IMG/VR virus record: IMGVR_UViG_3300027851_000034
Coordinates: 1-54,539 of that record
Source of the DNA: a virus
Lineage: Duplodnaviria; Caudoviricetes
Strand: one strand, 5' to 3'
DNA length: 54,539 bases
Shown in pieces: positions 1 through 19,822 of the stretch (position 1 is its first letter; each line of letters starts with the position of its first letter). The position numbers and the translations under genes were made by a program. Below the pieces are notes generated by a model. The model saw nothing but the letters and a program-made list of their open reading frames with translations. It did not search any database and was not told where the DNA came from.

Positions 1-268
1 TGCAACAACTGATACCCCAGGGCACAGGTGCGCCTGCTTGAGTCCCAGAGGGGGCGAGAACCCGCAAAAGGCGGGGAAAACGGGGCAGATCAGCCCTGAA
101 ACTGCTAAAAAACAAGGCAAATTGACTCGGAAAGCTGGAAATCGCCATCTTCGCACTCAGTTATGCAACGGCCTTAAGCCAGCGATAGCTTTCGCGATCT
201 GTTGCTTTTCAGTCAACACGTTACGACAGTCTTTCGATAAATCACGACCGTCTCCGAAGGAGCCAATT

Positions 269-280
269 TCATTCCCACTC
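269..280 (-). other. Putative att core duplicating the 3' end of guaA (GAGTGGGAATGA = E-W-E-stop)
   Basis: Lies about 100 bp past the last lysis gene. GMP synthase typically ends in IEWE*, and GAGTGGGA is the known core of guaA-integrating islands. The partner copy is not in the window. Confidence 0.65.
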
Positions 281-383
281 AAATATCAATTGCAGCAAAA
301 AGCATTTGATTTACATAGACTTTTTCACGGCACAAAAAGCCGATGCCATGCAAAATACCATTTGCAGAATCAGGTCAAAAATA

Positions 384-869
384 TCACCTCAAGGCTCGCT
401 CGGCTGAGTCGTAGCCGCTGGCGCATCGCCGGAACTCTGCAGCAAGCCGGGCGACATCGGCAGCATACCCCGTAAGAAAAGCTGCATCTCCCCTTGCCAA
501 TCCCGAGCCGGTGCATCCCACACCTGTTGAGGCGGGGTCGGCGGCTTCACCGGGTCTGTCGTGGGCCCGCAGTTCGGGGCGGTTGCGCAGGCCGTCAAGC
601 TCAGCAGAATGCACAGCAGCAATCCGTTTTTCTTCAGCATCTCGTTTCCTTCGCTCCCGGGCAGCATCCGCAGCCATGGCCCGCTCTTTCTCCCTGTACT
701 CCATCACCTTCTCTGCCGTCCGCAGGGCGCGAGATGCCGTTTCTCGCCCCCACTCCTGTCTGACGGCATCAGCCCCAGCCCTGCTCCCTGCGCTGTAAAT
801 GCCCCAGCATGCCGCAGCCATGGCGGCAAGCACGATCAGGGAAAGAATTGCGCGGGCGGGCAGGCTCAT
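384..869 (-). CDS. Rz-like inner-membrane spanin
   Basis: Start MSLPARAIL at 869 (ATGA overlap with the upstream gene). N-terminal TM helix, then coiled coil; last gene of the lysis cassette. Confidence 0.85.
   Translation of the reverse strand: MSLPARAILSLIVLAAMAAACWGIYSAGSRAGADAVRQEWGRETASRALRTAEKVMEYREKERAMAADAARERRKRDAEEKRIAAVHSAELDGLRNRPELRAHDRPGEAADPASTGVGCTGSGLARGDAAFLTGYAADVARLAAEFRRCASGYDSAERALR
389..640 (-). CDS. Rz1-like outer-membrane spanin lipoprotein, embedded in Rz
   Basis: MLKKNGLLLCILLSLTA-C lipobox, Pro-rich, in an alternative frame inside Rz. Confidence 0.8.
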   Translation of the reverse strand: MLKKNGLLLCILLSLTACATAPNCGPTTDPVKPPTPPQQVWDAPARDWQGEMQLFLRGMLPMSPGLLQSSGDAPAATTQPSEP

Positions 870-1237
870 TGGCTGGCCAGCTTGCTGCGCAGCTCGTAGC
901 CCATGAGGGGCCACACCTTGGCAATGGCGTTTTCGCGGGCAATGCGGCGGCCAATGTCTGCGTTGAAGTTCTCGGGGCTCGCGCAAGCGCTCTCACCTGT
1001 GACGGTGAAGCCGTTCCGCAGAACCAGTACGCAAAAGGTCAGAAGGTCAAGTTCTTTTGCATTGCGGCAAGCCTGCGCTTCTGGACCTCCGCGATACCTT
1101 CCGTCAACTCCGTCAAGTGCGGTGAAGTAGTGCTCACTGTTGATGTTTGCCTCGATGTTGGTAGGCGTGATGCGCGGTGCCACGTTGGCACCAGCGGCCA
1201 CGATTGCGGCTTCAATATGTTGGTCTTCGGTTTCCAT
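866..1237 (-). CDS. N4 Gp49/Sf6 Gp66-family protein; candidate cyclic-nucleotide sponge
   Basis: Motif LTFCVLVLRNGFTVTGESACASPENFNADIGRRIARENAIAKVWPLMGY. Start METEDQ at 1237. Confidence 0.85.
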   Translation of the reverse strand: METEDQHIEAAIVAAGANVAPRITPTNIEANINSEHYFTALDGVDGRYRGGPEAQACRNAKELDLLTFCVLVLRNGFTVTGESACASPENFNADIGRRIARENAIAKVWPLMGYELRSKLASQ

Positions 1238-1271
1238 GGGGTTCTTTCTCGGGGCTTTGGGGTTTTGGGGG

Positions 1272-1775
1272 TTATTCGACGATCTGCCAGTCGTCGGCCA
1301 GCATGTCGGTTTGGCTTGCCAGCCAGGGCACAAACTTGTTGTCGGCGGTTTTCATGCCGATCCAGGGGAGTGCAGTTGCACCCACACCATCGTCATCCAG
1401 CGTCAACCGGTAAACGGGCATTGACGTTCCTTGGCGCGGAATGTCGTGGATGCTCAGCGTCAAGCGCAGCCACATCCCCTTGCCATTCCACCCAGCACGC
1501 GCCACGCGCTTGCCCAGCTTCAGCGCCTCGATGGCAAGGCCGAATGACATGCCGGTGGTGGGCCGGTAGGCGGCATCAAACTGGGCTTTCGGGCTCCAAC
1601 TGATGTACCCGGCGTGCTTCGGGTGGTTCGGCTTCCCGCCGTCCAGGTACTCCACCAGATAGCCCTCATCCGCACCGTTTTCGTCGGCTGGCAGCGTCCA
1701 GCCACGGTATTCGTTGTAAGCCAGCCGGGTCATGGCAATGGCTGCGATCAGTTTGGTTCCGATGTGCAAAGACAT
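1272..1775 (-). CDS. DUF2829 (Tad2-like) domain fused to an uncharacterised N-terminal domain
   Basis: C-terminal MSFGLAIEALKLGKRVARAGWNGKGMW...WLASQTDMLADDWQIV; N-terminal GTK...GYLVEY...YISWSPKAQFDAAY. RBS GAAGGA before ATG 1775. Confidence 0.85.
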   Translation of the reverse strand: MSLHIGTKLIAAIAMTRLAYNEYRGWTLPADENGADEGYLVEYLDGGKPNHPKHAGYISWSPKAQFDAAYRPTTGMSFGLAIEALKLGKRVARAGWNGKGMWLRLTLSIHDIPRQGTSMPVYRLTLDDDGVGATALPWIGMKTADNKFVPWLASQTDMLADDWQIVE

Positions 1776-1789
1776 ATCAATCCTTCGTT

Positions 1790-2023
1790 TCACCGAGTCA
1801 TCCCGCTCGGCTTCGGGGTTTTCTTGCCCAACAGCTTCGAAGACCAGCTTCGAGGCCACAAATCCACCACCTTGCGTGCGGCGGCTGCCGAGAGCAATTC
1901 GCGCTCCATCAGCGTTGCCCCGCCCGGGGCGACATAGACATTCACCAGCGAGTGGTGGGGCAACCAAGGCAAGCCGCGATGCACAAACACCACGGCAGGC
2001 ACCCTGTGGATCGGCGTCGTCAT
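1790..2023 (-). CDS. Hypothetical protein (77 aa) in the lysis cassette
   Basis: RBS GAAGGA; packed in the operon. Confidence 0.6.
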   Translation of the reverse strand: MTTPIHRVPAVVFVHRGLPWLPHHSLVNVYVAPGGATLMERELLSAAAARKVVDLWPRSWSSKLLGKKTPKPSGMTR

Positions 2024-2127
2024 GAATTCATCCTTCCCGCACTGGCATCGTCCGCGTCTGGCAGGTCTTCATCTGGACCGCAGCACACCCAAACCCACAC
2101 CAGCGGCATCCATGTCCAATAAATCAT
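2020..2127 (-). CDS. Unannotated 35-aa Trp-rich peptide (MIYWTWMPLVWVWVCCGPDEDLPDADDASAGRMNS)
   Basis: ATGA overlaps at both ends (endolysin stop; start of the 2023 ORF) and fills the gap exactly. Confidence 0.5.
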   Translation of the reverse strand: MIYWTWMPLVWVWVCCGPDEDLPDADDASAGRMNS

Positions 2128-2630
2128 TGGGCCTCCAGGCAGCGGCGGTTTCGCTCTTGAGCGCGCAGCCAGACACCACGGCATCGGTTCGCAGGATCGG
2201 CACAGTCCTTGCCCGCTGCGCGGCGGGCATCCAGCCCCAGGTAAGCCGCACAGGCGTCCGCATACCGGCCAGCGTTGATGTGCAGCACAACATCAGACCG
2301 GCACGCCCCGCCAGCGCCACGCCAGTAGGCGAAATCCACCAGCACGTCGTACTCCGCTTGGCTCAGCGGCCCGGTGACGCACTGCCGCAGCCGCGTTTCA
2401 TCCTTCTGGATGTGGTGCAGCGACCGGGCCAAGGCCTTGTGCGGCGTGATGGTCTCGCCCAGCTTGACCGGCGACCCATCCTCCTTGAAGGTGCTGCCAA
2501 ATCCGTTTGTGGGCCGGTCTCCGGGGATGGGTATCACCGCCGTGCTGGTAAAGCCCTCAAGTCCGACGATGCCGACCAGACCGAAAGCAGACAGGGCCAG
2601 GGCCCCAATTGCGACGCGAAGTCGGCTCAT
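2124..2630 (-). CDS. Endolysin, GH24 lysozyme with probable SAR domain
   Basis: Gly/Ala-rich N-terminal helix followed by EG...D..T.GFGST; downstream of the holin. Confidence 0.92.
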   Translation of the reverse strand: MSRLRVAIGALALSAFGLVGIVGLEGFTSTAVIPIPGDRPTNGFGSTFKEDGSPVKLGETITPHKALARSLHHIQKDETRLRQCVTGPLSQAEYDVLVDFAYWRGAGGACRSDVVLHINAGRYADACAAYLGLDARRAAGKDCADPANRCRGVWLRAQERNRRCLEAQ

Positions 2631-2950
2631 CGCCAGTCCCCACGCCGCTCCACCGGGTCAGTGCGCCCATCCGGCATGCCGACGCGCCGGTCAGACGCAA
2701 AGCGCCTCTCCCTCGCGGCAAACTCGCGCTCCGCACGCTTGTGCTCCTGGTGTCGGTAGTACCACTCAATGCCCCGCCCGGTCACCACACCGACCACGGC
2801 CACGATCAGGCCACCGATGGCCGCCACATCATTTGCAGCCAGCCCACCAATGATCGCCACTGGCGCAGCCGCATACCCGGTCTTGCTCAATCCGCCACCC
2901 AATGTGGCAAGCACAGTCAAATCCCTGGTCGTGTGTTGTTCACCCATCAT
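2627..2950 (-). CDS. Holin
   Basis: Small TM protein with basic C-terminus (WYYRHQEHKR); ATG ATG at 2950/2947; overlaps the endolysin start. Confidence 0.8.
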   Translation of the reverse strand: MMGEQHTTRDLTVLATLGGGLSKTGYAAAPVAIIGGLAANDVAAIGGLIVAVVGVVTGRGIEWYYRHQEHKRAEREFAARERRFASDRRVGMPDGRTDPVERRGDWR

Positions 2951-2980
2951 CAGCCCCGGCCATCCAAAAAAAGAATGACG

Positions 2981-3024
2981 GCACTTTGCCGGTGGGCGCA
3001 ACCAAACTCAAACCCCACAGGGGG
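2981..3024 (-). promoter_or_regulatory. Late-promoter motif copy 1 (lysis)
   Basis: CCCCCTGTGGGGTTT-N19-GGCAAAGTGC. Confidence 0.7.
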
Positions 3025-3027
3025 TAA

Positions 3028-3564
3028 TCAAATTTGATCGTCCTGGATTGTGTAAACGCCTACCCAAATGGCGGCCATCTCAGCCCCCGCAAGCCGAAGC
3101 GCTTCGCGCAGCTCAGACCGACCCACAACCGCAACGCTGTTGTCGGCCAGCACCCAAGGCAACGTGTCGGCGTCATCCATCGCGGCAAGCGCACGCGACA
3201 TCCGGTCCTGGCTGCGCTCATCGCCGTCGAACACGTTGCCCCCCGACGTTGTGACTGTGATCGCGGCGATCTGGTCGGCACGGGCTGCCTTGGCCGCCGC
3301 CAGCAGTTCGTCGATGTGGTTTGACAAGTCAGCACTGGCCAGCGCTGCATCAAAGCTGGCTTTGTCGGGAAATGCGTAGAACACCGTTGGGATGCCGCCA
3401 AACACCCGCCTGGGCGTTTTCGGTGCTACACGGTATTCGTCCCAACCTGCCACACGGTGCGTCGTGTTGACATGCCAACCCGGCAACGCGGCAGGCTGGG
3501 TGCCCTCGGGGGCGTCGGGCGGCAGCGCGGCGTACAGCGTGCCGATTGGGTCGATTTGGATCAT
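3028..3564 (-). CDS. Tail fibre assembly-associated protein (DUF4376-like)
   Basis: FDGDERSQDRM...WVLADN motif; RBS GAGGGAG before ATG 3564; follows the fibre gene. Confidence 0.75.
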   Translation of the reverse strand: MIQIDPIGTLYAALPPDAPEGTQPAALPGWHVNTTHRVAGWDEYRVAPKTPRRVFGGIPTVFYAFPDKASFDAALASADLSNHIDELLAAAKAARADQIAAITVTTSGGNVFDGDERSQDRMSRALAAMDDADTLPWVLADNSVAVVGRSELREALRLAGAEMAAIWVGVYTIQDDQI

Positions 3565-3575
3565 GTTCGGCTCCC

Positions 3576-5291
3576 TCAAGCGCTCAGCGCTTGCAAGTGG
3601 TTGGGCAGGGCGCGCGGGAAGTACAGCACCCGCGAAACAGTGCCTCCAAACATCCCCGTGTTGTACGCCCCCCCAATGTTCAGACGGTCAACCGTTGGCA
3701 CCGAGCCTGACAAATCCGACTGCACCACAGCCCCTCCAGACGAAGCTGCAAAATTGTCGGTACCGTAACTGCCAGCCGCTTTTTCAAGCACCCCACCGTT
3801 TGACGGCGACAGGACAAACTGAGCTTGGTTCACCCCCGCCAGCACCACATCAAACCGGCGTTGTGTTTGAGTGGCGTTGCCGCAAGGGAACGAAATCAAG
3901 TTGTTGTTTGAGGCATCGGTTGCCGACAGCAAGAAACGGCTCCCCGATCCAGACGCTGGGTTTGGGCTGCTGGTGGCCCACACCACAAAAGTGCCTTCTG
4001 ATGGGTTGAACCACTTGCCAAAATTACTGCCCGTGATCTGCGCCAAATCAGCCGTGGCCGTGACGGCCGTGCCAGCGGTCGGCACAAAAGGACTGTCAAC
4101 CGACCCCGTGGTCAGCATCGCAAACTGCACCGTGCCCGACACCGTGAAAGTCACACTCCCGGCGGATGGCGTGAATGTCAGACCCGAGCGAGACGGGTAA
4201 GAACCACTGCCAACCACCACGCCCTCAGCCGCACCCGACAGCGTGACAGTGCCCGTGCCGTAAAAACTGAGGCGATGCGCGACGGCGGTCAGCGTGACGG
4301 ACTGCGTGGCCAGCGGGGTGCCGTTGAGCAGCGAATTCAACAGCAGGTTGGTTCGTGCACCCCACACACTCAGGCCAAGCCCTGCCCCGGTCACGGGGTC
4401 GAACTCCAGGCGGGGCACGTTGCTGCTTTGAGCCTTGAGCGCGCCAAGCGCATCGGTGTACGCCCTGCCACTGCCCGTGTAAGTCAAGATGTCGGCCAGC
4501 GCAATCTCTTTCAAGCCCACCGCACCGTCAAACACGCGGTAGCGTTGCCGCGCAAAGTCCAGGTCAAGCGTGGGAGCGATTGGGGCGCGGTCTGCGATGT
4601 CCAGCAACGGGAGCTGAGATGCGGGCACCCTGGCGTCCGCCCCCAAGCCTGCGTAGCCGTTGGCGGCACCTTTGCTTCCGGCGTTTTCTGGCGTGAAGCC
4701 AAGTGCGGCCTGCTTTGCGCTCCAGGCGGCCTTTTCCGCATCCGTGACAAAGCGGTTATTCGCGTCTTGGGAGATGATGTCTGGTGAGTGAGTGCTCGGG
4801 TGGGTGTAGTTGGTGGCCCCAACAGCCACCCCGTCGAGCTTGGCTTTGTCGGTGGCCGACATGAAGCCAGAAGCGCTTGTCGTCGCTGCGCCGTGCGTGT
4901 GGCCGGAATCGGCTTTTGAAGACACTTGGGCCTGCAACTTCCCGATAGCCGATAGCACAGAATCGGCTGCCGAGACAGCAGTGGCGGTGGCTGTGCTCAG
5001 TCCTGTGAGTGTGGCGGCGCGAACCTGGGCAAACAAGTCTTGCCACGTTTTGTCCCCCCTGAAATACTGTGCAGTGGTCCCCGAAGCGATGGCACCCTCT
5101 TTTGCCCCCCAAGCCGTGCGCTCGGTATCCGTCACTCCACGGTATCCAAGCCCGCTCCAGGTCGAGACACCGTCGCCGATCTTGAAGCGCCCGGTGTCCT
5201 TCTCGTAGCCCCACTCCCCCTCGGCCAGCAAAGGGTTTACCGCCGCCCATTCCGCAGCCGTGCCCCGTCGCACCTGAATCTGCTCGCTCAC
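3576..5291 (-). CDS. Tail fibre / receptor-binding protein with Mtd-N-like N-terminus and lectin-like C-terminus
   Basis: IQVRRGTAAEW...NPLLAEGEWGYEKDTGRFKIGDG; fibre repeats; beta-rich C-terminal domain. Confidence 0.85.
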   Translation of the reverse strand: MSEQIQVRRGTAAEWAAVNPLLAEGEWGYEKDTGRFKIGDGVSTWSGLGYRGVTDTERTAWGAKEGAIASGTTAQYFRGDKTWQDLFAQVRAATLTGLSTATATAVSAADSVLSAIGKLQAQVSSKADSGHTHGAATTSASGFMSATDKAKLDGVAVGATNYTHPSTHSPDIISQDANNRFVTDAEKAAWSAKQAALGFTPENAGSKGAANGYAGLGADARVPASQLPLLDIADRAPIAPTLDLDFARQRYRVFDGAVGLKEIALADILTYTGSGRAYTDALGALKAQSSNVPRLEFDPVTGAGLGLSVWGARTNLLLNSLLNGTPLATQSVTLTAVAHRLSFYGTGTVTLSGAAEGVVVGSGSYPSRSGLTFTPSAGSVTFTVSGTVQFAMLTTGSVDSPFVPTAGTAVTATADLAQITGSNFGKWFNPSEGTFVVWATSSPNPASGSGSRFLLSATDASNNNLISFPCGNATQTQRRFDVVLAGVNQAQFVLSPSNGGVLEKAAGSYGTDNFAASSGGAVVQSDLSGSVPTVDRLNIGGAYNTGMFGGTVSRVLYFPRALPNHLQALSA

Positions 5292-5521
5292 GGCGTGCCC
5301 CCGTCAATCCCGGTGGTGCCGCCGAAGACGGCGCCGGGCGCCCCACCGTCGATGTTGCGAAAAACCGAAACCTCAAGGTCTCCGGCCCCCAGGACACTGC
5401 TGCCGTTGATCGTCTTGATGTTGGACCCCGACACCAGCGCGGCCTGCTTCCCAGCCATCAGCGACTTGATGTCGGCCGCAATGGCCTGGGCCAGCGCAGT
5501 GATGCGAGACTCCAGGCTCAT
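5288..5521 (-). CDS. Small tail-fibre-associated protein
   Basis: MSLESRITALAQAIAADIK; LVSGSNIKTINGSSVLGAGD fibre motif; ATGA coupling. Confidence 0.75.
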   Translation of the reverse strand: MSLESRITALAQAIAADIKSLMAGKQAALVSGSNIKTINGSSVLGAGDLEVSVFRNIDGGAPGAVFGGTTGIDGGTP

Positions 5522-6123
5522 GCTTTCGCCGCCGTGTAGTCGGCCACAAAGTTGTGGTCCGGGTCGCCGACGCCTATGTTCGCGCACGCCTGCTGCTGCT
5601 GTGACAGGCTCAGGGTCTGTGCTGCGTCAAACCGGACGCGAGCCGCCAAACTGTTGGCCACCGTCGTGGCGTAATTGGCATCGTTCCCAAGCGCGGTGGC
5701 AAGCTCCGCCAGCGTATCGAGGGCAGACGCAGCGCCATTCGTCACCTGATTGACCGCCAGGGCAACAGCAGCGCTCTGCGCCGCAGCCACGACGGCCAGA
5801 ATCTTGTCAACGCTGAAGGTCTTGTTCGTGACCCCAGCCACCGCCGTGTCGTTGATCACAGCTGAAAGGTCGCTGAACGACGCCGTCGCCCAGTTGGCAT
5901 TCAGCGTGCCACCCATCAGCTGGTAGAACGTGCCGTCCCCTTTGCAGAAAACCAGCATGCCCTCCAGCCTGCGGTCAGCCGTGATCGCATCCCTGGCCGT
6001 GGTGTCGGCCACAGACCGAAATCCGCCACGGTTGTACGCCTCGTCCGTCACCGCATAGGTGTCAGAGCTGTCGGTGGGGGCCATAAACCCCGCAACGCGA
6101 ACAGAACCCGGAATTGATGCCAT
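5518..6123 (-). CDS. Tail-fibre-associated protein
   Basis: ASALDTLAELATALGNDANYA fibre motif. Confidence 0.75.
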   Translation of the reverse strand: MASIPGSVRVAGFMAPTDSSDTYAVTDEAYNRGGFRSVADTTARDAITADRRLEGMLVFCKGDGTFYQLMGGTLNANWATASFSDLSAVINDTAVAGVTNKTFSVDKILAVVAAAQSAAVALAVNQVTNGAASALDTLAELATALGNDANYATTVANSLAARVRFDAAQTLSLSQQQQACANIGVGDPDHNFVADYTAAKA

Positions 6124-8666: not shown

Positions 8667-8810
8667 ATGTTCTGGGTCACACTGTTTTTTCTGGCATTTC
8701 TCTTGATAGTTGTGTGCAGTGGAGCATCAATTAAATCCATATTCACAGTGGTTACCATCATTGGCGCTGTCTCGACTGTTATTGGATTTGCGCTGAATTT
8801 TTTGCTGTAG
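8667..8810 (+). CDS. Unannotated 47-aa two-TM protein
   Basis: MFWVTLFFLAFLLIVVCSGASIKSIFTVVTIIGAVSTVIGFALNFLL; RBS GAGGG; below the ORF-track size cutoff. Confidence 0.6.
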   Translation: MFWVTLFFLAFLLIVVCSGASIKSIFTVVTIIGAVSTVIGFALNFLL

Positions 8811-11800
8811 CAAACATCGTGTTCATGTTGCTCATGATTTCGGTGATGCGTTGCTCAACGGCATTTACCTGGGCGGCATCGGCATCTGACTTGAGCATTT
8901 CGCTTTTCTCTCGTCGCAATTGCTGCACGCGCCGCTCTGCCATGTTGAATCCAATGATCAGCCTGGCCTCTGGGTTCTCCATGCGCAATTCCCTGGCCTC
9001 GGCGAACTTCCCATCCTTCTCAAGCCCCCTGATCTCCGTCTCAAGGCGGTTCAGCTTGCTGGCATTTGAATAGAAGGCATTGCCTTGGCCAGACTGGCCA
9101 TCGGCGCTGCCCACAAACCGGCCAACCAGCGGCACCTTGTGCAGCGGCAAATCTTCGCCAGTGATGGTATTGGTGATGGTTTGCTCCACCTTTGTGAGTT
9201 CGCGCCACACGCCACCACCAAGCTGACCGGCGAGATAGTCAATCTGGTCAGGCGTTGGGCTCAACACACCGGCCACATACTTGTTGCCACCAGATAACGT
9301 GTTGATGGCTTCAGCCAAGAACTTCGACACAATGGAGGCGGAATCTTTGTGCTGGGTGAAGCCGGGTAAGTCTTTATTGGACGACACCCGCGCAATAGGC
9401 CTACCGGTCCAGTCCTTGTTTTCTGTCAATGCCACAAGCGGATCAAGAACTGTCGGAGCAATGGTTTGCATGGACAGTCCAGCGTTGCCAATTGGGTTGA
9501 ACGCATCGGCAAACAACCCGGCCAACTCTGCGGCTCTCTGCACCGGGTTTTTGAATCCACCAAGCGCAAACTCAGTCGCCACGCGCCCAACGCTGGGTAT
9601 TACGTGCAGGCCAAGCGGCATGGGGATGGTGATGTACGACTTGCCTCCTGTGGGGATGATCAGGTTGCGCTCACGCACAAACTCTGGCGGCTCATCGTCA
9701 TCAAATCCGGCAGCAGCCAAAGCCAATGCCTGAACAGACCCCAGCAGCACCCCGCCGTACACCACCTTTTTGCCATACGGCGTCAGTCGCAGCGTCTTGG
9801 GCTGGCCAGGCTCCATGGTCATCAGGGTTTCAGCCAAACGAGCTGTGCCCTGCATGGCTGCATTGAAGAAGGCGTACACGGCACCGGCCTGTGCGCCTGA
9901 AATACCTTTTCGGTTGAAGTTGACGGTCAGATTCTTCGCCAAACTGGCCGCCTTCTGGCGCGTCATGCCTTTGTCCAGCGCTGCCTTGTATGCCGCCAGG
10001 CGCACGCCGTTTTCCATGGCCTCGTTGTAGTCGCTCAACCAATCAAACAGGCCGCTTGAGCCCTTACGGATGAGGCTGATTGGACGGGTCAATCGCCCTT
10101 CGGCAGTGAAGAACTTCCCCAATTTCGACTTTGCCCACGCGTCAGGGTTCATCAGTTCATTGAAGGCGTCCGTGCGATCGGCCGGCGTTGCGAACAAATC
10201 CCGAAAGCCGGTCTGCCCACCATCTTGCTGAAACTGCTCGTACAGCTTGGACCACTCAGAAGAAGACGCCCCGCCCTTGCGCACGGAGCGAATGTCCTTG
10301 TAAATCCCTGACAGCGCACGGATGGCGTCTTTGGCGATCCGGTTTTTCTGGTCGGCCAACTCGGTGGCACCCAAGTTGATCATGGCACCCTGCACATCTC
10401 GCACCAGGTTCACCACGCCAAAAACGGGGTTGTATTGGGTGTTGATGGATGCAAAGTATCGAGTCATCTGCGACACCGTGCCCAGCCATCCCTCAATCTG
10501 AGGCGTGTCCAGGTTTTTCAGGGCGCCAGCCATGCGAACGGCTCGCTCGTTGTCCTGGTTGAACGTCACGGCAACCTCGCGCACCACGCCATCCTTTGCC
10601 ACCTTGGCCATCACCACATTGGGCAAGCTCTTGAACAGCGGGTTCACGCGCTCCTCAACGACGCCAGTCTTGGGGTTGAACACCCGCTCGGAATCTGGTG
10701 GGCCGACCTTCCAGAAGTCTTGATTTGGGTTGGCTGTCACCAGCCCCACCAAGGCCTTGGCCACACGGTTTTTCTCTCCGCGCACCACAGCCTTTTCCCG
10801 GGCAGATGCAATGTGACTGATGATGTCCACCACCTTGCGGGTGGAGCCTGTTCGGCCCTTGGTCTCTCGGCCTTTGATGGAGAAGCCCTGTCCCGTGCCA
10901 CGCCCACCGGCCTTGTCCTCTCGATGCAGTGGCACGTAGTGCTTGAACATCTTGCCCCAGGAGTCGATGGCGCTCTGAGGCTCCAGCTCATACTCCACCA
11001 TCAGGCGATTGGTCTCAGCCATGATCGCGTCGAACTTCGCCGCCACCGCCGCCAGCCTAACCGCATCGGCCCTGGGCAGATTGGAAAAGTAGGCATCTGC
11101 CTCGGCATCCTTCATGCCAGAGCCGCCATCCTGCAAACCCTCAACATCAGGATTGCGCTCGGCAATCACCCGATTTGCCTCCTTCGCATGCCGGGCGTGC
11201 ATGTACTCCTCAAGGTCTGCAAGCTGAAACCCATGGAGCGCCAATTGCCTCAAGGCCGGCTCAAGTTCTTTCCTTGTGAAATCCTGAACGCGCTTGGCTG
11301 TGCGACCGTGATACAGCTCCTCTTGCAGGTAAACGTTGATGTCATCAGCCAACTTTCCAGACCACTTGGTGATGCTTTGGGTGACTCGCTTCAAGTCCAC
11401 CAGTTTGTCTTGCAGATTGAAAACGTAGTCATCCCACTTCGATGGCAGCGGCGCATCCCACCGGTCAGCCGCAGCCCCCTTCACACCGAAGTCGTCGGGG
11501 TCTGGTGTGCGGCGGAAACGAATGTCCGGGTTCGCCGGATCGAAATCACCATTGTTGCCAATGGCGCTTTTCACCTGCGTGGGCTCGAAGGCTACGATTT
11601 CAATCGACCCATCGGGGTGTGTCAGCATCACGCCATCGTGTCCTTGCGCCTTGACCTTTTCCGTGAACTGGTCAATGTGGGACTGCGGTGCCCTGGACAG
11701 CTTGCGCTTCATGTCCAGCGTGGCCGGGTATGGGTTGACCACCGCAAAGTACAGCGGCATCGCGTTCTGGCTGCCATCTCCGCGCTTGGCAGAAGCGTAG

Positions 11801-14800
11801 AGACTGGCTATGTCCGGGTCGCTGGTGCCGTAGATGCCCCAACCGAGCCAGCCGGTATCTTTTCGGTTGGGATGTCCAACATCAAATTGGCTGATGTCGT
11901 CTCGTGTGCCATGGAAAAAGACAACCGGGCGGCCTTGCGCATCAACGGGTCCGGATCGTTCACGTCCCACGGCGGCAGAGGCAGGCTGTCCAGCATCTCC
12001 TCCAGAGTCATTTCTTGCGGCGGCTTTTGCATCACGGCCACTGTACCAGCGCTTGAACGCCTCGCCCTGTGTTTGGTCTTTGCTCCGGCTCAGCCTCACA
12101 CCACCAGGCCCACCATTCGGGCCACCGCTCACCACGAAATTGCGTGCTGGCAGCAGGTACTGGCTGATGATCTCGTCATCCGTCAGGGCCATTTTCCCGA
12201 AGCCAGGAATATGGGTTCTCAACCACGCCCTGATGGCCGCAATCGCCCGCCTCACAAACCCAATTTGCGGGTTGGTCTCTGCCATCTCCGCCAGCACTTC
12301 CTCGGCCGCCTGCAGGCGCTGGCCAGGATCCTCAAAATCCAACCCATACTGCTCCGCCTTCGCACGAACATCCGCTTTGCGAAACACGGCAATCTGGTTC
12401 AGGATGTCAGACAACCCCTTGCCAAAGGTGCCCCTCAAGCCGTAATGCCCCAGGGCCTCATGGAAAAGCACGCGCACCACATCACGGGGTTCGCTCAGCG
12501 CACCAGCCACGATGTAGGCTTTGCCCTTGTACCAAAAGCCCTCGGGCTCACCCTCGGCACCCTGGCTGCGCTGCTGTGCGTCATATTCGCGCACAACCGC
12601 CGGGGCTTTTTCATCCTGCATGTCCGCAAGCACCACCACCTCGGGAGCGTTGGCCCAGCGGGCGGTGATGCCGTCAACGACCTTTTGAGCGAGGTCAGCA
12701 GTCAGGCCGCTTGAGGCCCCCTGGCTGCGGCTATTGCGTGGCGATACGCTCGCATCTCCAGCATTGCCTGTTTGGTTTCCTGCCGCAAGGACTCTATCTC
12801 TGACAAGCTGAGCATCGTCATGTTTGGCAAGGTAGCGCGCCTCTGACTCGGTGAGCGCATCAAACCCGTAGCCGGTAACGGCTCGGAATTGCGGCTCGAT
12901 GTCATCAAATCGTTCACGGACTTTGCTCAGAAGTTCTGGTGATGGGGATAGAACTGAACTGTACTGCTTCCCGGTCAGGGCAACAAGCCCAGACACCATG
13001 CCGCCGTTGTCGCGGATATGGCTTGCCAGCGATGCAAATGTGCCACCTTGCGTTACGGTGTCATCCACAAGCACATACGCTGCGCCCTTGCGCACAAGCC
13101 CATCAAACACAGGTGGGTTCAGCAGCCTATCAAGCCCATCCATGGAGGTGCGCTTGGGAGAGTTGACCTGCACAATTTCTGCCTCGGCCTCAGTGCCCAG
13201 CCTTTCTGCCAACAGGTCGGCAACGGCAGCTGGGATTTTGTTTCGGCCGGTTGCCTCCACCGACACCACCGGGACGATCACATCAGCACCACTGGCTGCG
13301 TCACGCACTCGCTGCACAAAAGCGTCATCCACCAAGTCAAATGCAATGCGCGCAGCTGCAAAGCTGTCGCCTGCCTTTGCTGCTTCGTAATCCGGGTGCC
13401 GGTTCAGGTCACCAAGCTTGTGCCCAATTACCACGTCAGGCAGGCGGTTTCCGCTGTTGCTGCGTCGGCTGAACATCGGCACGCTGGCCGCCACACCATC
13501 GGGCTTTTTGTCACTGCGCAGCATCAGGTGCGACCCGCCGCGCGGCTTATCGCCCGAGCGGGCAATCATCTCATTCACAAAATCGTCCAAGGCCGTGTTG
13601 TTCAGGCCATGAATCCAGTTGGCCAGCCGAGCCATGCCAAGGAACCTTGCAATCTGTTCAAGCAAGTTGCCGACTGAACGGGTCCAGGCGCGCAGCTGGA
13701 AAGGAGAGCCAGCGCGCAAGGTTTCGCTCATCGTGGCCAGCGACTCCTCAACAGCCACAGCCTCATAATTGGCCAAGCGTTCACCCGTCATCGGCCCTAT
13801 TGCCGAATAACTGGCCAGCTTCTCCTGCCCATCGGCAGATTTTTTCCAAGCCTCCGCCCCCCTTCGAACCACGGCGTGATCGGTTGCCAGACCCAACATG
13901 AACTTGACGTAATCCGCATTCGTGGCGAAATACGACTTCAACCCCCGGTGAAACAACTCATGGAAAACCGTCCTCATCACGTCCAAAGTGCCAGTGTTGG
14001 CACCGGAAAAGACAACGATCCTCCCGTCTTTGAGTACCCCACCCTTTGGCATCGGCCCAGGGATACTCAGCCCAGCATCGGATGGCGTGCGGTGCACCTC
14101 AATGTGAGGCGCGTTTGGAATGTCCTTCAAGACAGACTGCACGGCTTTAAAAGCCGCATCGTGCGTCAATGGACGGCCAAATAAGCCCGGCAATGTCGCC
14201 CTGCGGTACAGCATCTCGCCAGCCTTATCGCCGAGCCCGTACACCCTCTGCCGCCTCGACATGGCACCGGAGCTTTTGAGCGCCTGCGCCACATCACCCC
14301 GGGTGCTTCCTTTTGGCACGGTCACCGGGTCGCCGGTCTCAAAGTTCAGGGCCTCATATTTCCCGACGTACACCACACCGTCTTTGACTGTGACGGCTTG
14401 CGCGTTGCCCGGCGTGGAGCCCACCATCATCTGATCTGGCTTTGTGACTGAATTCGGGGCGCCGACCGGCTTGGCAGCGTCGGATTGCGCCCCCCCAGGG
14501 GGTTGTGAGTCAGACCCAACCACGGCCCCCGTCTGCCCGGCTTGTTCCTGACTTACGCCATTTGCAGGGCCGCCAGCAGCGCCAGAAGATGCATCCACCG
14601 TTGCGCTCGGGAACTCCTTCACCAGCGGCAGCAGCTCGGCAGCCGGGGCATCCAATCGAATGGCTTTGACAGGCTCCCCAGTCTCAAGCTTGGCCACGGC
14701 TTGATGATGGCCGTCAATGATGTGACCATCGCTTGAGATCAGAATCGACCTGTCGCCTCCAGCCTCCTTCGCACGCTCCACCTTCTCGGGAGAAAACTCC

Positions 14801-17181
14801 GCCTGCGTCGGCTTGAGCGTGGCAGGGTCAACCTCAACCGCCTCATGTCCAACACCCCGTGCATTGAGGAAATTGGTCATTGCCCCCCGATGCGCCGTTT
14901 TGATCTGAGGCATCTCAGAGCGTGGGACATCCAGTGTTCCGGTATCGGCCCCAAACGCCTCCCAAGAGGTGGCCCCCACATCGGCGCGCTCCGACTCCAG
15001 CGCTGCAGCCACCTTCTGGCGCACGGCATCCGGCACCTTGGCCCACTGCTTCTCAGCCATGCGAAGGGCAAAAATCCCCTTCAGGCCAGCGTCTGTCATC
15101 AGTTTTTCGCGCTCGCTCAGGGTCTTGGTCTGCCACACCTGTTCGGCAGCCTTGCTTGGCGACTGGGGGGAGGTCGCCACACCCTGACCGGCATCACCGG
15201 CTGCGCTGCTTTGCCCAGCCATCGCTCTCGCCTTGAACCTTGCAAGGTTCGTCTGCCGCTGGTCGGGAATGGTCATCGCATCCCCGGCATTGGCCTGGGA
15301 GCCCTCGGCTACGCCTGCTGAGGGTTGCGCTTGCGGTCGTTGCGTTTGCGCTTGCTGGGCTTGATCGCCATTGAGTGCTCCTTGGGTGGGTTGTGGAACT
15401 TGTTGCGCCAGGCGTGCGGCTTGCTCTCGCTGCGAGCGGATCCGTGCCAGCCCCTCGCGCAGATTTGTGGGGGCAGGAAGGGAGAGCGGCTGTCCCGTGG
15501 CCATCACCTCCCTGGCCTCCACGTCGATGACGGGCGACTCACCCAGGCGTCGAGGCGTGCCAATTTGCCCGGCCGCCGCCCCAATGGGCTGAACATCCAC
15601 CGGTTCTGCGGTGCGGCGCTGCAAACCCAAACCAGAAACCGCAGCAGGGGATGCGCCAGAATCCACCGCCACCACGGCGGAAGCCGACAGCGGGCCCGCC
15701 GACGGGTTCAAGCCCATGGCAACAGATGGCCGCTGAGCGGGAGGCTCTACAAACCCCGCATCGCCAGGCATCACAAAGTTCTGGCCAAACGGCTTGGCCG
15801 GTTTCTCTGGTGATGCCTTCATATCCGGCGCAATGTCCATGCCGGGTGGGATGTACCCGACAGGCTTTTGCTCTGGTGTCGGCTCTTGGTACGGCACATC
15901 GCCTGAAGGCTCTTGCCTCAACTCAAGCGGCACAGTCGGTTCAACGCCTGCGCGGGGGTCGTAAGTGCGCTGCAGTCCACCGGTTTGCTGTTGAGCAATC
16001 AGGTCTGCATCTGTTGCAATGGACGGGGTATCGGTTGGCGTGGCGGTGTCGCCTTGCGGAACAAGCGAAAGACCGCTTTCTGTTGGCGTGATGGGTGGCG
16101 CTGCATCAGCCTGCGGGCCAGTCATCCGCTGATACAGCTTTTGACCTGCGAACGTCAACCCACTTTGCCCAAGCGAAGAGGTGGCCTCTAAGAACGCATC
16201 CTTGGCATCAGCCTCGCCAGTGGCGGCGTACGATCCTGCGTATTCACCCGCGAACTCACCTACTGGCTCAGCCAACCCGGCAGCGGCATTCCTCGCCACT
16301 TTCTGCGCGCCGGTTTGCGATGCTTGGTAGGCTGCGTCATTGGCGATGATGCTCTTGAATGCAGGCGACTTCGACGCAGCAGATACCGCCGCTTTGTCAG
16401 CAACGTCCACGCCAAGTTCAGTCAGGGCCTTGTTCGCAGCAGCCTTACCAGGGCCAGACAGCAGCGCATGCGAAAGGCCCATGGTGGCGGTATCCACCGC
16501 ACCAATCACCGCCCCCTTGACGGCAGTTTCACCCAGGATTGAATCCCCATTCTTGTCAAGGTATGCCTTCACAGCCGCCGTGTCAGTCGGGTTGATGCCC
16601 GCTTTCTCCAGCTGCCTGAATGCCGCCTCAGACGTGCCAACCATGGAGTTACCGGCAGCCGCACCAGCAAACCCACCCACGGCAGTACCAACGGGGCCAG
16701 CAGCCGAACCAGCAGCGCCACCGACCAACATGCCAGCCATCGGCAAAATCATGTTGGGCACTTGCTCAACGATGCCCGACCCCAATGCTTGCAGGTTGCG
16801 GCCCACAGACATCGCACCAGCGCCAAATCCTTTGGCATTGTTGTAGTCGTTGGCAACCTCACCGGCTACACCCTTGATGCCACCTATGATGCCGTCACCT
16901 TCGCGCCAAGCCTTCATCAAGCCTTGGCCTTCTTCGCTACCAGGGTTTGCCTTCTGATACTCGGCCTGCGCACGGATTCGCTCGGATGCCGCCACCGTAT
17001 CTCGGCCAGCCAGATCAGCGGTCAGCCCAACGCTTGACTTGACGCTTTTCCAGCCACGGGCCAGCGGGCCATCTGTATCGGCTGGCTTTATGGGCTGACC
17101 ATCAGCCTGATGAAATTTTGAGAACGGGTTCTCACCGCCTGCATCAGTGTGAAACTTAGCAAATTGATTTCTCTGGTCCAT
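8779..17181 (-). CDS. Giant (2800 aa) polyvalent protein, probably virion-ejected: ParB-like, two zincin-like peptidase, PRTase, ADP-ribosyltransferase and LPD38 domains
   Basis: LKPTQ...IIDGHHQ; HELFH and HEALGH; YVLVDDTVTQGGT; FFHGT...GIY...EIVAFEPTQVKSA; C-terminal ENKDWTGRPI...SPTPDQIDYL. Start MDQRNQF at 17181. Confidence 0.85.
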   Translation of the reverse strand: MDQRNQFAKFHTDAGGENPFSKFHQADGQPIKPADTDGPLARGWKSVKSSVGLTADLAGRDTVAASERIRAQAEYQKANPGSEEGQGLMKAWREGDGIIGGIKGVAGEVANDYNNAKGFGAGAMSVGRNLQALGSGIVEQVPNMILPMAGMLVGGAAGSAAGPVGTAVGGFAGAAAGNSMVGTSEAAFRQLEKAGINPTDTAAVKAYLDKNGDSILGETAVKGAVIGAVDTATMGLSHALLSGPGKAAANKALTELGVDVADKAAVSAASKSPAFKSIIANDAAYQASQTGAQKVARNAAAGLAEPVGEFAGEYAGSYAATGEADAKDAFLEATSSLGQSGLTFAGQKLYQRMTGPQADAAPPITPTESGLSLVPQGDTATPTDTPSIATDADLIAQQQTGGLQRTYDPRAGVEPTVPLELRQEPSGDVPYQEPTPEQKPVGYIPPGMDIAPDMKASPEKPAKPFGQNFVMPGDAGFVEPPAQRPSVAMGLNPSAGPLSASAVVAVDSGASPAAVSGLGLQRRTAEPVDVQPIGAAAGQIGTPRRLGESPVIDVEAREVMATGQPLSLPAPTNLREGLARIRSQREQAARLAQQVPQPTQGALNGDQAQQAQTQRPQAQPSAGVAEGSQANAGDAMTIPDQRQTNLARFKARAMAGQSSAAGDAGQGVATSPQSPSKAAEQVWQTKTLSEREKLMTDAGLKGIFALRMAEKQWAKVPDAVRQKVAAALESERADVGATSWEAFGADTGTLDVPRSEMPQIKTAHRGAMTNFLNARGVGHEAVEVDPATLKPTQAEFSPEKVERAKEAGGDRSILISSDGHIIDGHHQAVAKLETGEPVKAIRLDAPAAELLPLVKEFPSATVDASSGAAGGPANGVSQEQAGQTGAVVGSDSQPPGGAQSDAAKPVGAPNSVTKPDQMMVGSTPGNAQAVTVKDGVVYVGKYEALNFETGDPVTVPKGSTRGDVAQALKSSGAMSRRQRVYGLGDKAGEMLYRRATLPGLFGRPLTHDAAFKAVQSVLKDIPNAPHIEVHRTPSDAGLSIPGPMPKGGVLKDGRIVVFSGANTGTLDVMRTVFHELFHRGLKSYFATNADYVKFMLGLATDHAVVRRGAEAWKKSADGQEKLASYSAIGPMTGERLANYEAVAVEESLATMSETLRAGSPFQLRAWTRSVGNLLEQIARFLGMARLANWIHGLNNTALDDFVNEMIARSGDKPRGGSHLMLRSDKKPDGVAASVPMFSRRSNSGNRLPDVVIGHKLGDLNRHPDYEAAKAGDSFAAARIAFDLVDDAFVQRVRDAASGADVIVPVVSVEATGRNKIPAAVADLLAERLGTEAEAEIVQVNSPKRTSMDGLDRLLNPPVFDGLVRKGAAYVLVDDTVTQGGTFASLASHIRDNGGMVSGLVALTGKQYSSVLSPSPELLSKVRERFDDIEPQFRAVTGYGFDALTESEARYLAKHDDAQLVRDRVLAAGNQTGNAGDASVSPRNSRSQGASSGLTADLAQKVVDGITARWANAPEVVVLADMQDEKAPAVVREYDAQQRSQGAEGEPEGFWYKGKAYIVAGALSEPRDVVRVLFHEALGHYGLRGTFGKGLSDILNQIAVFRKADVRAKAEQYGLDFEDPGQRLQAAEEVLAEMAETNPQIGFVRRAIAAIRAWLRTHIPGFGKMALTDDEIISQYLLPARNFVVSGGPNGGPGGVRLSRSKDQTQGEAFKRWYSGRDAKAAARNDSGGDAGQPASAAVGRERSGPVDAQGRPVVFFHGTRDDISQFDVGHPNRKDTGWLGWGIYGTSDPDIASLYASAKRGDGSQNAMPLYFAVVNPYPATLDMKRKLSRAPQSHIDQFTEKVKAQGHDGVMLTHPDGSIEIVAFEPTQVKSAIGNNGDFDPANPDIRFRRTPDPDDFGVKGAAADRWDAPLPSKWDDYVFNLQDKLVDLKRVTQSITKWSGKLADDINVYLQEELYHGRTAKRVQDFTRKELEPALRQLALHGFQLADLEEYMHARHAKEANRVIAERNPDVEGLQDGGSGMKDAEADAYFSNLPRADAVRLAAVAAKFDAIMAETNRLMVEYELEPQSAIDSWGKMFKHYVPLHREDKAGGRGTGQGFSIKGRETKGRTGSTRKVVDIISHIASAREKAVVRGEKNRVAKALVGLVTANPNQDFWKVGPPDSERVFNPKTGVVEERVNPLFKSLPNVVMAKVAKDGVVREVAVTFNQDNERAVRMAGALKNLDTPQIEGWLGTVSQMTRYFASINTQYNPVFGVVNLVRDVQGAMINLGATELADQKNRIAKDAIRALSGIYKDIRSVRKGGASSSEWSKLYEQFQQDGGQTGFRDLFATPADRTDAFNELMNPDAWAKSKLGKFFTAEGRLTRPISLIRKGSSGLFDWLSDYNEAMENGVRLAAYKAALDKGMTRQKAASLAKNLTVNFNRKGISGAQAGAVYAFFNAAMQGTARLAETLMTMEPGQPKTLRLTPYGKKVVYGGVLLGSVQALALAAAGFDDDEPPEFVRERNLIIPTGGKSYITIPMPLGLHVIPSVGRVATEFALGGFKNPVQRAAELAGLFADAFNPIGNAGLSMQTIAPTVLDPLVALTENKDWTGRPIARVSSNKDLPGFTQHKDSASIVSKFLAEAINTLSGGNKYVAGVLSPTPDQIDYLAGQLGGGVWRELTKVEQTITNTITGEDLPLHKVPLVGRFVGSADGQSGQGNAFYSNASKLNRLETEIRGLEKDGKFAEARELRMENPEARLIIGFNMAERRVQQLRREKSEMLKSDADAAQVNAVEQRITEIMSNMNTMFATAKNSAQIQ

Positions 17182-17185
17182 CCCC

Positions 17186-17229
17186 CAACTTTGCCGATGG
17201 GGGTGGCTGGCGTCGAACCCCACAGGGGG
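17186..17229 (-). promoter_or_regulatory. Late-promoter motif copy 3 (polyvalent protein)
   Basis: CCCCCTGTGGGGTTC-N19-GGCAAAGTTG, just upstream of ATG 17181. Confidence 0.7.
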
Positions 17230-17234
17230 AGCGC

Positions 17235-17270
17235 AAAAAGGCAAAACCCGCCAGGAATTCCGAGCGGGCT
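17235..17270 (-). terminator. Probable intrinsic terminator of the antirepressor operon
   Basis: CCCGC/GCGGG stem with T-rich tail on the minus strand. Confidence 0.5.
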
Positions 17271-17881: not shown

Positions 17882-18622
17882 TCATTGAAGCAACCCGCCA
17901 CCCATCGCTTGAGCCAATTTGGTCAAGCCTTTGGGGGTGATGCGCGGCTGTGTGGCCGTCCACTCTGTGCCATCACCCTTCTCTCCAACCGTCACCTTGT
18001 GCTCCATGAGCCCCTGCTGAATGCGTTCTTGGTACGCAAGCCATCCAGCACCCATGGGGCGGCGGTAAATCCACCCCTTCTCCTGCAAAAGCTGAGTGAA
18101 CTTTCGAGGCTGAATTTGCAGCGTCTTCGCCGCATCGGTCAGGCACAGCGAGCCGTCCGACGTTGCAATGCGCTCCAGCGCCTCAACTTTTGGCGCTTGT
18201 GTGGCCACAACGGTTTCAAGTTTTTGCACCTGGGCCACCGCTTGCAAGCGCCCCTCCTCCGAGTCAATGGCCATTTTCAGAATGTCGATGCGCGACAGGC
18301 TGGATGGGTCAAAGCTGGTGGCCTTGGCTTCAAGCTCCTGCCACCGGTCAACTATGCGGGCAGTGAACTCAGGGGAGAGTTGGGCGACAACTATCAGGCT
18401 ACTGCGTTTGTCGAGTTTGTAGACGCCGACAGTTTCCTCACGGCGTTCTCGCTGAATTTTGACTTCCTCAATTTGAGGAAGTGAGATTGCACCACGCTCG
18501 GCGCAGCTTTCAATGGTGCGCTTCACGTTGTCATGGCGCTTTTCGGTCAGCTCGGCGATTTCCCGGCTTGTCATGGTCACACTATCGGATAAACCGGAAA
18601 TGTTGGCGATGTTGGTATTCAT
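17882..18622 (-). CDS. Antirepressor: Rha-like N-terminus plus KilAC/ANT C-terminus
   Basis: TMTSREIAELTEKRHDNVKRTIE; LCLTDAAKTL...QPRITPKGLTKLA. Confidence 0.9.
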   Translation of the reverse strand: MNTNIANISGLSDSVTMTSREIAELTEKRHDNVKRTIESCAERGAISLPQIEEVKIQRERREETVGVYKLDKRSSLIVVAQLSPEFTARIVDRWQELEAKATSFDPSSLSRIDILKMAIDSEEGRLQAVAQVQKLETVVATQAPKVEALERIATSDGSLCLTDAAKTLQIQPRKFTQLLQEKGWIYRRPMGAGWLAYQERIQQGLMEHKVTVGEKGDGTEWTATQPRITPKGLTKLAQAMGGGLLQ

Positions 18623-18780
18623 TTCTGCGTTCCTTTCTGCTCTTGACGGTTGCGGCTCTCTTCAAGCCGGAAAACAACTTCGGCGGTCAGGCTGCGTCGA
18701 GCCTTTTCCGCCTGCTCTTGCAGCCACACCTTCAACCCCACAGGGAGCCGAAGGTTGGTCTGCGCTTCGCTGGGTGCCAT
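18619..18780 (-). CDS. Arc-family ribbon-helix-helix repressor
   Basis: QTNLRLPVGLK...RRSLTAEVVFRLE; RBS AAGGAG. Confidence 0.85.
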   Translation of the reverse strand: MAPSEAQTNLRLPVGLKVWLQEQAEKARRSLTAEVVFRLEESRNRQEQKGTQK

Positions 18781-18792
18781 AACTTCTCCTTC

Positions 18793-18856
18793 ATGTAGCA
18801 CTTTGCTTGGTTTGAATGTAGCACTTTGCTTGGACAAGCGCAAGCAGTTTGCTTGG
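18793..18856. promoter_or_regulatory. Operator repeats between divergent Arc genes (cassette 2)
   Basis: ATGTAGCACTTTGCTTGG at 18793 and 18816; AGCAGTTTGCTTGG at 18843. Confidence 0.7.
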
Positions 18857-18867
18857 ATAATTCGCGC

Positions 18868-19245
18868 ATGGCCTCCGAGGACGTTCAAACAAACCTGCGT
18901 CTGCCTGCTGATCTCAAAGATCGGCTGGTAGCTTCTGCATCAAATTCCAAGCGCTCATTGAGCGCGGAGGTGTCTGCACGACTTGAGGGGAGCTTTCACG
19001 AAAGCGGGCTGAAGTTGAGCAATCCTGCGCGCCAGGCCGTGCAAAAACTGGTAGACCGCGCCGGGATAACCGACCAGGAAGCTCTGGAGCGGCTTGTTTT
19101 GCAGGGGCACGCCACCCTGGAGAACAGAAACGTCCTTGTAATTCGCGCCGACGCCAGCCTCTCAATGGATGACTTGATCCGAGTCTTGAGCGCAGCAAAG
19201 AACTTCCTGCCTGACATCTCCGATGTCCATCTCGAAAGAGACTGA
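18868..19245 (+). CDS. Arc/Mnt-family repressor with C-terminal extension
   Basis: QTNLRLPADLKDRL...KRSLSAEVSARLE; GATAAT 6 nt before the ATG (leaderless-like). Confidence 0.85.
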   Translation: MASEDVQTNLRLPADLKDRLVASASNSKRSLSAEVSARLEGSFHESGLKLSNPARQAVQKLVDRAGITDQEALERLVLQGHATLENRNVLVIRADASLSMDDLIRVLSAAKNFLPDISDVHLERD

Positions 19246-19708: not shown

Positions 19709-19723
19709 GGTTGCTTCCAAAAA

Positions 19724-19822
19724 ATGGCGACTAGCCATGTGATGAATTGCGGCGAATCGCCGCATTTATGCAATAGCAAAGATGGCGAATCGCCATTAAT
19801 TTTAACTATGGCGATTCGCTAG
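19724..19822. promoter_or_regulatory. Four palindromic operators GGCGA(A/C/T)T(C/A)GC(C/T) between divergent Arc genes (cassette 1)
   Basis: Copies at 19724, 19748, 19782 and 19808. Confidence 0.75.

Follow-up and report, generated by a model that had tools for sequence, protein, structure and literature searches.

The DNA analysed here, called the window below, is the whole 54,539-base stretch of the metagenomic viral record IMGVR_UViG_3300027851_000034, a linear record with an estimated completeness of 87% that represents a temperate, freshwater phage. Its gene content comprises a CI-like repressor, replication and Nin-type genes, terminase, portal and major head protein genes, Ant/Arc regulators, tail fibres and a virion-type protein of 2,821 amino acids (aa), and the closest phage relatives have Gram-negative hosts. 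The late genes are located on the minus strand, with the lysis genes last, at the left edge of the record. We describe a group of four tightly packed genes of 35, 77, 167 and 123 aa (positions 866-2127) that splits this lysis cassette. The two larger genes encode members of the Tad2 and Acb4 families, which include published sponges against the Thoeris and CBASS (cyclic oligonucleotide-based antiphage signalling system) defences, and by its sequence the operon probably carries a two-gene counter-defence cassette of published kinds.

The lysis operon and its four inserted genes

The genes and domains of the operon are as follows.

2627..3001, minus strand: holin; the longest open reading frame (ORF) has 124 aa, and an ATG pair near 2950 is the likelier start
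2124..2630, minus strand: endolysin of 168 aa; phage lysozyme (PF00959, E 1.6e-15; phrog_7, E 1.3e-25)
2020..2127, minus strand: orf35, a gene of 35 aa
1790..2023, minus strand: orf77, a gene of 77 aa
1272..1775, minus strand: 167-aa gene, with an N-terminal domain and a Tad2 domain
1557..1775, minus strand: N-terminal domain ("N-dom", residues 1-73 of the 167-aa protein), modular and without a Pfam family
1272..1550, minus strand: Tad2 domain (PF11195; residues 76-167 of the 167-aa protein)
866..1237, minus strand: 123-aa gene of the Acb4 family (PF13876)
384..869, minus strand: Rz-type inner-membrane spanin, 161 aa from the ATG at 869 (phrog_6197, E 5.8e-5)
389..667, minus strand: Rz1-type outer-membrane lipoprotein spanin, embedded in Rz in another frame (phrog_456, E 8.8e-5; phrog_3198, E 9.4e-4)

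All four lysis functions (holin, endolysin, Rz and Rz1) are found on one strand, the spanin matches being weak (E ~1e-4). The holin is recognised by phrog_4237 (E 1.2e-10) and phrog_20 (E 7.2e-8) and falls just below the cut-off of the Pfam models (PF16080, 27.9 bits vs 28.8), and the Rz-type protein scores 25 bits for DUF2514, for which the cut-off is 26. The Rz1-type protein has a lipobox-like L-T-A-C after a hydrophobic stretch. The N-terminus of the endolysin is hydrophobic and Gly/Ala-rich, and by appearance the enzyme may be of the signal-anchor-release (SAR) type. Stop and start codons overlap as ATGA at four junctions (holin/endolysin, endolysin/orf35, orf35/orf77 and 123-aa gene/Rz), and the remaining junctions have gaps of 14 and 34 nucleotides (nt). 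The 35-, 167- and 123-aa lengths correspond to internal ATG starts within the longer ORFs 2020-2184, 1272-1967 and 866-1333, respectively; Shine-Dalgarno-like sequences are located 4 nt before orf35 (GGAGG), 7 nt before orf77 (AAGGA) and 5 nt before the 167-aa gene (GAAGGA).

The domains of the cluster proteins were identified by comparison with Pfam, PHROGs and the PDB. The 167-aa protein matches PF11195 over profile positions 1-73 of 73 (E 6.5e-26, 91.1 bits vs a cut-off of 25), and seven solved Tad2/AcrIIA7 chains in the PDB match it with E values from 3e-14 to 6e-13. SPO1 Tad2 (Gp34.65; PDB 8SME/8SMF/8WJE) has the same domain (E ~4e-14), its W-N pair and its W...S.TD stretch being kept in the window protein, and it differs in being a single domain of 89 aa, whereas the 167-aa protein has 73 extra N-terminal residues. 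When the gcADPR-site residues of SPO1 Tad2 listed by Yirmiya et al. are mapped via the HMMER alignment, eight of the ten are identical (W25, N26, T65, D67, W73, S76, T78 and D79) and two are changed (I63 to M and H71 to V). The variable loop between beta2 and beta3 has 24 residues in SPO1 Tad2 and 35-41 residues in the dinucleotide-binding homologues reported by Li et al.; with ~31 residues, the loop of the 167-aa protein lies between the two classes, so that a second (dinucleotide) specificity is unreadable from it.

The 123-aa protein matches PF13876 (Phage_gp49_66) over profile positions 1-82 of 82 (E 4.8e-33, 114 bits vs a cut-off of 27), and a six-frame search of the whole record with this family found this gene as its one single match. 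Chang et al. place SPO1 Acb4 in PF13876 and take its 1,331 members to constitute the Acb4 family; each of the eight homologues that they purified is reported to bind 3'3'-cGAMP, while their specificities differ and c-di-AMP binding was seen only in homologues from phages of Gram-negative hosts. SPO1 Acb4 itself (gene 1.3; PDB 9E4W) matches the 123-aa protein only weakly (E 0.0038). The two proteins share the Pfam family, and their core strand-loop-helix aligns; the window protein differs in being 27 residues longer and in belonging to a phage with Gram-negative-host relatives.

The 3' half of the Acb4-type gene (876-1046) has ~75-78% DNA identity to many phage genes of Ralstonia, Pseudomonas, Curvibacter and Acidovorax, and divergent contigs of very high depth in the source metagenome match it as well. 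A 2.8-kb query of the region matched 181 records, 88 of which are Ralstonia phages. The Acb4 core is unusually conserved across unrelated phages.

A preliminary description of this DNA had located the four packed genes within the lysis cassette, and its coordinates and sizes are exact. It had taken DUF2829 for the Tad2 domain, as is borne out by PF11195, the PDB matches and the literature, and had added that Tad2 also binds cyclic dinucleotides, which according to Li et al. is true for some homologues. Its statement that the Gp49/Gp66 family corresponds to Acb4 is correct, as Chang et al. equate Acb4 with PF13876. The separate domain at residues 1-73 of the 167-aa protein was missed there.

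Recurrence of the sponge pair in other phages

The same two families occur side by side in phage N4. The N4 homologue of the 123-aa protein (EPNV4_gp48) is 41% identical to it over 99 residues (E 4e-25), and the adjacent EPNV4_gp49 consists of the N-terminal domain and Tad2, with 45% identity to the 167-aa protein. As in the window, the two N4 genes are adjacent and coupled on one strand, and the Tad2 protein has the same two-domain architecture. In contrast, the order of the N4 genes is reversed, with Acb4 first, and N4 is a lytic phage that carries the pair in a hot spot beside the virion RNA polymerase gene, whereas here it lies in the lysis operon of a temperate phage. N4 Acb4, which we equate with gp48 because gp48 is the PF13876-like gene, is reported to bind c-di-AMP at 111 nM and to trigger the PanDA guard system. 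In a 2026 preprint, this part of the genome of N4-like phages is presented as an anti-signalling hot spot.

Joint delivery of the two sponges is also known from fusion proteins. Fusions between Tad2 and Acb4 are frequent according to Tal et al. (bioRxiv 10.1101/2025.07.12.664507), who report one of them to be active against Thoeris and CBASS alike. The Tad2-Acb4, Sequestin-Tad2 and Sequestin-Acb4 fusions of that preprint resemble the window cassette in delivering two sponges together against Thoeris and CBASS, and differ from it in that here the sponges are encoded by two separate genes and without Sequestin: a search for Sequestin (PF21825) in six frames of the whole record gave no match at E <= 10.

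Among 80 viral loci with a two-domain Tad2 gene, an Acb4-type gene is present on the same strand in 32, and in 29 of these it is at most 300 nt away, in either order; the count comes from tblastn with one query and from loci that were not dereplicated, and should be read as an approximate minimum. Acidovorax phage AP1 and E. coli phage Huey likewise have the two genes side by side. For a survey of placement, the 80 loci were dereplicated to 64, and the two closest ORFs of the same strand to either side of the Tad2 gene (235 in total) were compared with PHROGs, at E <= 1e-5 for the first 150 ORFs and E <= 1e-8 for the last 85. Neighbours of the lysis category were found in 8 of the 64 loci (L009, L016, L017, L025, L033, L040, L043 and L081). 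Three of the 64 (L016, L043 and L081, the endolysin of L081 being recognised via tblastn) have the order endolysin, at most one small ORF, Tad2 gene and Rz, and in L016 and L081 a homologue of the window endolysin with 42-46% identity stands directly upstream of the Tad2-type gene. Head or packaging genes adjoin the Tad2 gene in 20 of the 64 loci, and recombination genes, primase or integrase do so in other loci. These varied neighbours indicate that the Tad2 gene is mobile cargo landing mostly in late operons; insertion between endolysin and spanin has occurred repeatedly, but in a minority of loci.

Two other neighbours were recorded at these loci. In three unrelated loci, a RuvC-like gene (phrog_159; L059 4566-5036, L063 4712-5338 and L076 3296-3778) stands directly downstream of the Tad2-type gene, a placement that recalls the RuvC-domain protein Bes1 reported beside Acb4-Sequestin in the hot spot of N4-like phages. 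In five dereplicated loci, the two-domain Tad2 gene has as its immediate neighbour a small ORF of phrog_717, a group of unknown function (L017 368-661, L040 3759-4001, L058 3751-3978, L069 3709-3984 and L024 4507-4776); this ORF is a candidate companion gene.

The N-terminal domain, the two small genes and other features of the window

The N-terminal domain of the 167-aa protein has no Pfam match at E <= 0.1, PF21825 included, and is therefore invisible to Pfam-based fusion surveys. It may be the most common partner of Tad2: the best 120 of 8,000 scored relatives of the 167-aa protein all have two-domain length and 97-100% query coverage. Searched alone, the domain found 134 short proteins. 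Stand-alone genes of 73-78 aa are present on long phage contigs (P0141, P0168, P0208 and P0224, the last from Erwinia phage phiEaP8), in P0195 the domain (residues 1-58) is fused to Sequestin PF21825 (61-118), and phrog_9467 joins it to an Acb4 core. Its profile also aligns over 71 columns with that of the RyR Tad N-terminus (gp68 of Pectobacterium phage vB_PatP_CB1), with an hhalign probability of 97.4% and an E value of 9e-12. In both proteins the homologous domain is followed by a sponge domain, which in RyR Tad is a helical domain resembling ryanodine-receptor Repeat12 and not Tad2. The 2026 preprint on RyR Tad describes its N-terminal domain as a fold of unknown function, and reports that the N-terminal fragment of gp68 forms a strand-swapped dimer in the crystal and is inactive alone against type I Thoeris. 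A literature search found no other paper discussing the domain.

The domain is strongly conserved, with a mean column identity of 49% and with R, W, Y, N and E positions that are invariant or nearly so. Its AlphaFold 2 (AF2) model has a pLDDT score of 96.4, and the fold resembles common small beta-barrels (Z 5.1 for DUF1653 and Z 4-4.8 for CarD, Mfd and UvrD Tudor-like domains). Foldseek against the PDB gave nothing below E 1.7, a PDB profile search with the alignment of the domain (A1) gave no match, and in the ESM Atlas it matched unnamed viral clusters only, with scores of 0.85-0.88. A relation of the domain to Acb4 or to orf77 was considered and rejected (hhalign probability 0.04% and 0.09%, respectively).

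Of the two small genes, orf77 belongs to a recognisable family. A word-based homologue search found only orf77 itself, and phmmer against 1.84 billion representatives found 40 relatives at E <= 1e-3 (best 1e-9), mostly of 60-80 aa. The alignment of the family (A2) has invariant P22, P33 and W56 and the motif PHY...VAPGG...LWPR; the 40 relatives and the invariant residues indicate that orf77 is a real gene. The AF2 model is a small beta fold with a pLDDT of 86.8. The protein is without a Pfam or PHROG family, its fold finds nothing above Z 3.2 in the PDB, and a PDB profile search with A2 gave one chance-level match (E 0.28). In BFVD it matches three uncharacterised phage proteins, and phage proteins only; the ESM Atlas gave no usable feature match, its model being poor (pLDDT 0.37). 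A homodimer prediction from two copies with A2 scored 0.01, which says nothing for or against a dimer.

The sequence of orf35 has a hydrophobic N-terminal half and an acidic tail, and no Pfam or PHROG match was found for it. Neither orf77 nor orf35 has a tblastn match in 50,697 phage records, with orf35 searched at E up to 10, and relatives of neither were found in the 80 Tad2 loci (by tblastn for orf35). We regard orf35 as an orphan; from its sequence it looks like a small membrane peptide, and it could be a lysis accessory or nothing at all.

The genomic setting of the orf77 family was assessed with a degenerate DNA pattern, which gave 26 viral loci, 24 of them confirmed by the family profile and 18 left after dereplication; the pattern catches only part of the family, so the sample is biased. 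An exonuclease, an Erf protein or a phrog_1297 ATPase is encoded just downstream of the orf77 homologue in 10 of the 18 loci, and a phrog_93 endonuclease upstream in 3 of the 18. No lysis gene was found among the four flanking ORFs in any of the 18, and no Tad2- or Acb4-type gene in any of the 24 confirmed loci. The usual home of the family is the early recombination region, orf77 in the window looks like independent cargo, and nothing marks it as a sponge. The preliminary description had named both small neighbours as candidate inhibitors through guilt by association; this argument is not supported, as the orf77 family never accompanies sponge or lysis genes in the 18 loci and orf35 has no relative in the 80 Tad2 loci or the 50,697 phage records.

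It is accordingly unlikely that orf35 and orf77 are new inhibitors of signalling defences and that the cluster consists of four counter-defence genes. Both genes are translationally coupled to the sponge genes, and orf77 represents a conserved, folded, phage-specific family that usually stands in front of recombination exonuclease, ATPase or Erf genes. The recombination region of lambdoid phages is a place of host-takeover genes. On the other side are the consistent separation of the orf77 family from Tad2- and Acb4-type genes in the 24 and the 80 loci, the lack of a match between orf77 and any sponge family in sequence or fold, and the orphan status of orf35, the membrane-peptide look of which fits a lysis accessory equally. 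The N-terminal domain is a better candidate than either of them. We nevertheless consider it rather unlikely that this domain acts against host defences in its own right, on a separate ligand or protein target, in which case the cassette would have three active parts. The stand-alone proteins on long phage contigs, the fusions to Tad2, Acb4, Sequestin and RyR Tad sponge domains and the strong sequence conservation speak for it, and it was by such reasoning from fusions that Tal et al. arrived at Sequestin; the one published test, in which the gp68 fragment was inactive against type I Thoeris, the dimerisation role seen in the crystal, and a fold similar only to common small beta-barrels speak against it. 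We consider it rather improbable, and offer it as a conjecture, that the domain constitutes a new counter-defence family that binds an immune signal or a host protein, is bolted onto at least four unrelated sponge families and is also encoded alone. If this were true, the lysis-operon cassette would combine three activities.

Several features outside the lysis operon were also recorded. Positions 1-167 have a contig depth far above the rest of the record in three metagenomes of different studies, which suggests that the contig ends in an element shared by many genomes; this left end gave no match in tRNA and Rfam scans. A single ORF on the minus strand (8779-17244) encodes the 2,821-aa protein, the C-terminal 880 residues of which match PHROGs of unknown function (phrog_14770, E 9.8e-240) and which has a weak endolysin-like segment at residues ~1584-1696; its product is probably a giant virion or ejection protein. 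A second region of immunity type (17882-20349), with two genes for Ant-type anti-repressors and two for Arc-like regulators, separates this ORF from the structural genes. A homing-endonuclease-like gene (41885-42574, minus strand; phrog_314, E 6.5e-20) lies between the small and large terminase genes. A groundwater sample of another study contains near-identical contig pieces corresponding to positions 301-685, 736-906, 1595-1759, 1853-2073, 2444-2596 and 2674-2939, each differing from the record by 0-2 positions; these pieces demonstrate that the same phage is present elsewhere and are uninformative on selection.

Timing, alternative readings and biological meaning

A consensus scan of positions 1-6000 found no minus-strand promoter, and the 7 terminator-like sites detected there, vs 6.4 expected, are not above chance. 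From the gene overlaps and from the lack of promoter and terminator signals above chance, we infer late, bulk expression of the sponge genes. In published cases, Thoeris is triggered by structural proteins (a tail fibre and a capsid vertex protein), and late production of the sponges would fit such triggering. Two short hairpins with T-rich runs are located at 2979-3025 on the minus strand, between a tail-fibre assembly gene and the probable start of the holin gene, and may represent a terminator that is read through by late antitermination.

An alternative with regard to timing is that the sponge genes are not late and have their own transcription, either early or in the prophage, as is often the case for cargo genes of late operons. 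In the argument of Yirmiya et al., sponges are needed before the signal, and related Tad2 genes occur in many different operons, which implies that the gene moves as a self-contained unit. Nevertheless, with ATGA overlaps and gaps of only 14 and 34 nt there is no intergenic space for a promoter, and together with the negative promoter scan and the chance-level terminator count this makes such an arrangement improbable in our view. With regard to function, the DUF2829 protein could be suspected of being an AcrIIA7-like anti-CRISPR, since its relatives are labelled "anti-CRISPR protein" in phage records and PDB chains named AcrIIA7 match it (E 6e-14 and 6e-13). However, Li et al. report that they could not reproduce Cas9 inhibition by AcrIIA7/HgmTad2 or by other Tad2 homologues, in vitro or in vivo, and found sponge activity instead, and Yirmiya et al. 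likewise argue against Cas9 inhibition and for a sponge. An anti-CRISPR role is thus very improbable, and the "anti-CRISPR" labels on such genes in records are probably wrong.

The reading of the two genes as a late-expressed Thoeris and CBASS sponge cassette has to be weighed against several points. Tad2 specificity varies, the tested homologues having gcADPR, His-ADPR, N7-cADPR, cCMP/cUMP or cyclic dinucleotides as ligands, and a conserved gcADPR site does not fix the ligand. Only four of the ten contact residues of SPO1 Acb4 are identical in the 123-aa protein, namely the adenine-pocket residues F62, N63 and I66 and the stacking F48; V56 is replaced by C, and neither the residues that read guanine (K36 and E49) nor those that contact phosphate (Y57, T70 and K81) are kept, so that base specificity may differ from that of SPO1 Acb4. 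Lysis neighbours in only 8 of the 64 surveyed Tad2 loci make the lysis location one of many. Yirmiya et al. argue that a sponge should be present before the signal is made. Finally, the ligands, the oligomeric state, the timing and the benefit to the phage are all inferred, in part by analogy with published homologues. The family membership of both proteins, the conserved Tad2 contacts, the operon anatomy and the recurrence of the pair are directly established.

Under the sponge-cassette reading, the 167-aa protein would be, by homology, a Tad2-family tetramer that sequesters gcADPR-type signals made by TIR proteins, and Thoeris would thereby be blinded. It carries an extra N-terminal domain, which in one published relative forms a domain-swapped dimer. 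The 123-aa protein would similarly be an Acb4-family tetramer that sequesters cyclic dinucleotides such as 3'3'-cGAMP and blinds CBASS, and it probably also binds c-di-AMP, like the homologues from phages of Gram-negative hosts. Being on one message with the holin, endolysin and spanins, both sponges would build up at a late stage, at the same time as the structural proteins by which such systems are triggered. A more remote possibility is that placement in the last-transcribed operon delays sponge production, and that guards sensing the sponges (Panoptes, PanDA) then fire too late to stop progeny.

This analysis allows two "hypothetical" genes in a lysis cassette to be named with confidence. 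They represent a known kind of cassette, with sponges against Thoeris and CBASS, at a less usual site, and add a further case in which the two are paired, as cargo in the very last late operon. The remaining leads are the modular N-terminal domain and, after it, the orf77 family. The placement of the cassette is relevant to the stage at which sponges have to be produced and to the ways in which phages deal with sponge-sensing defences.

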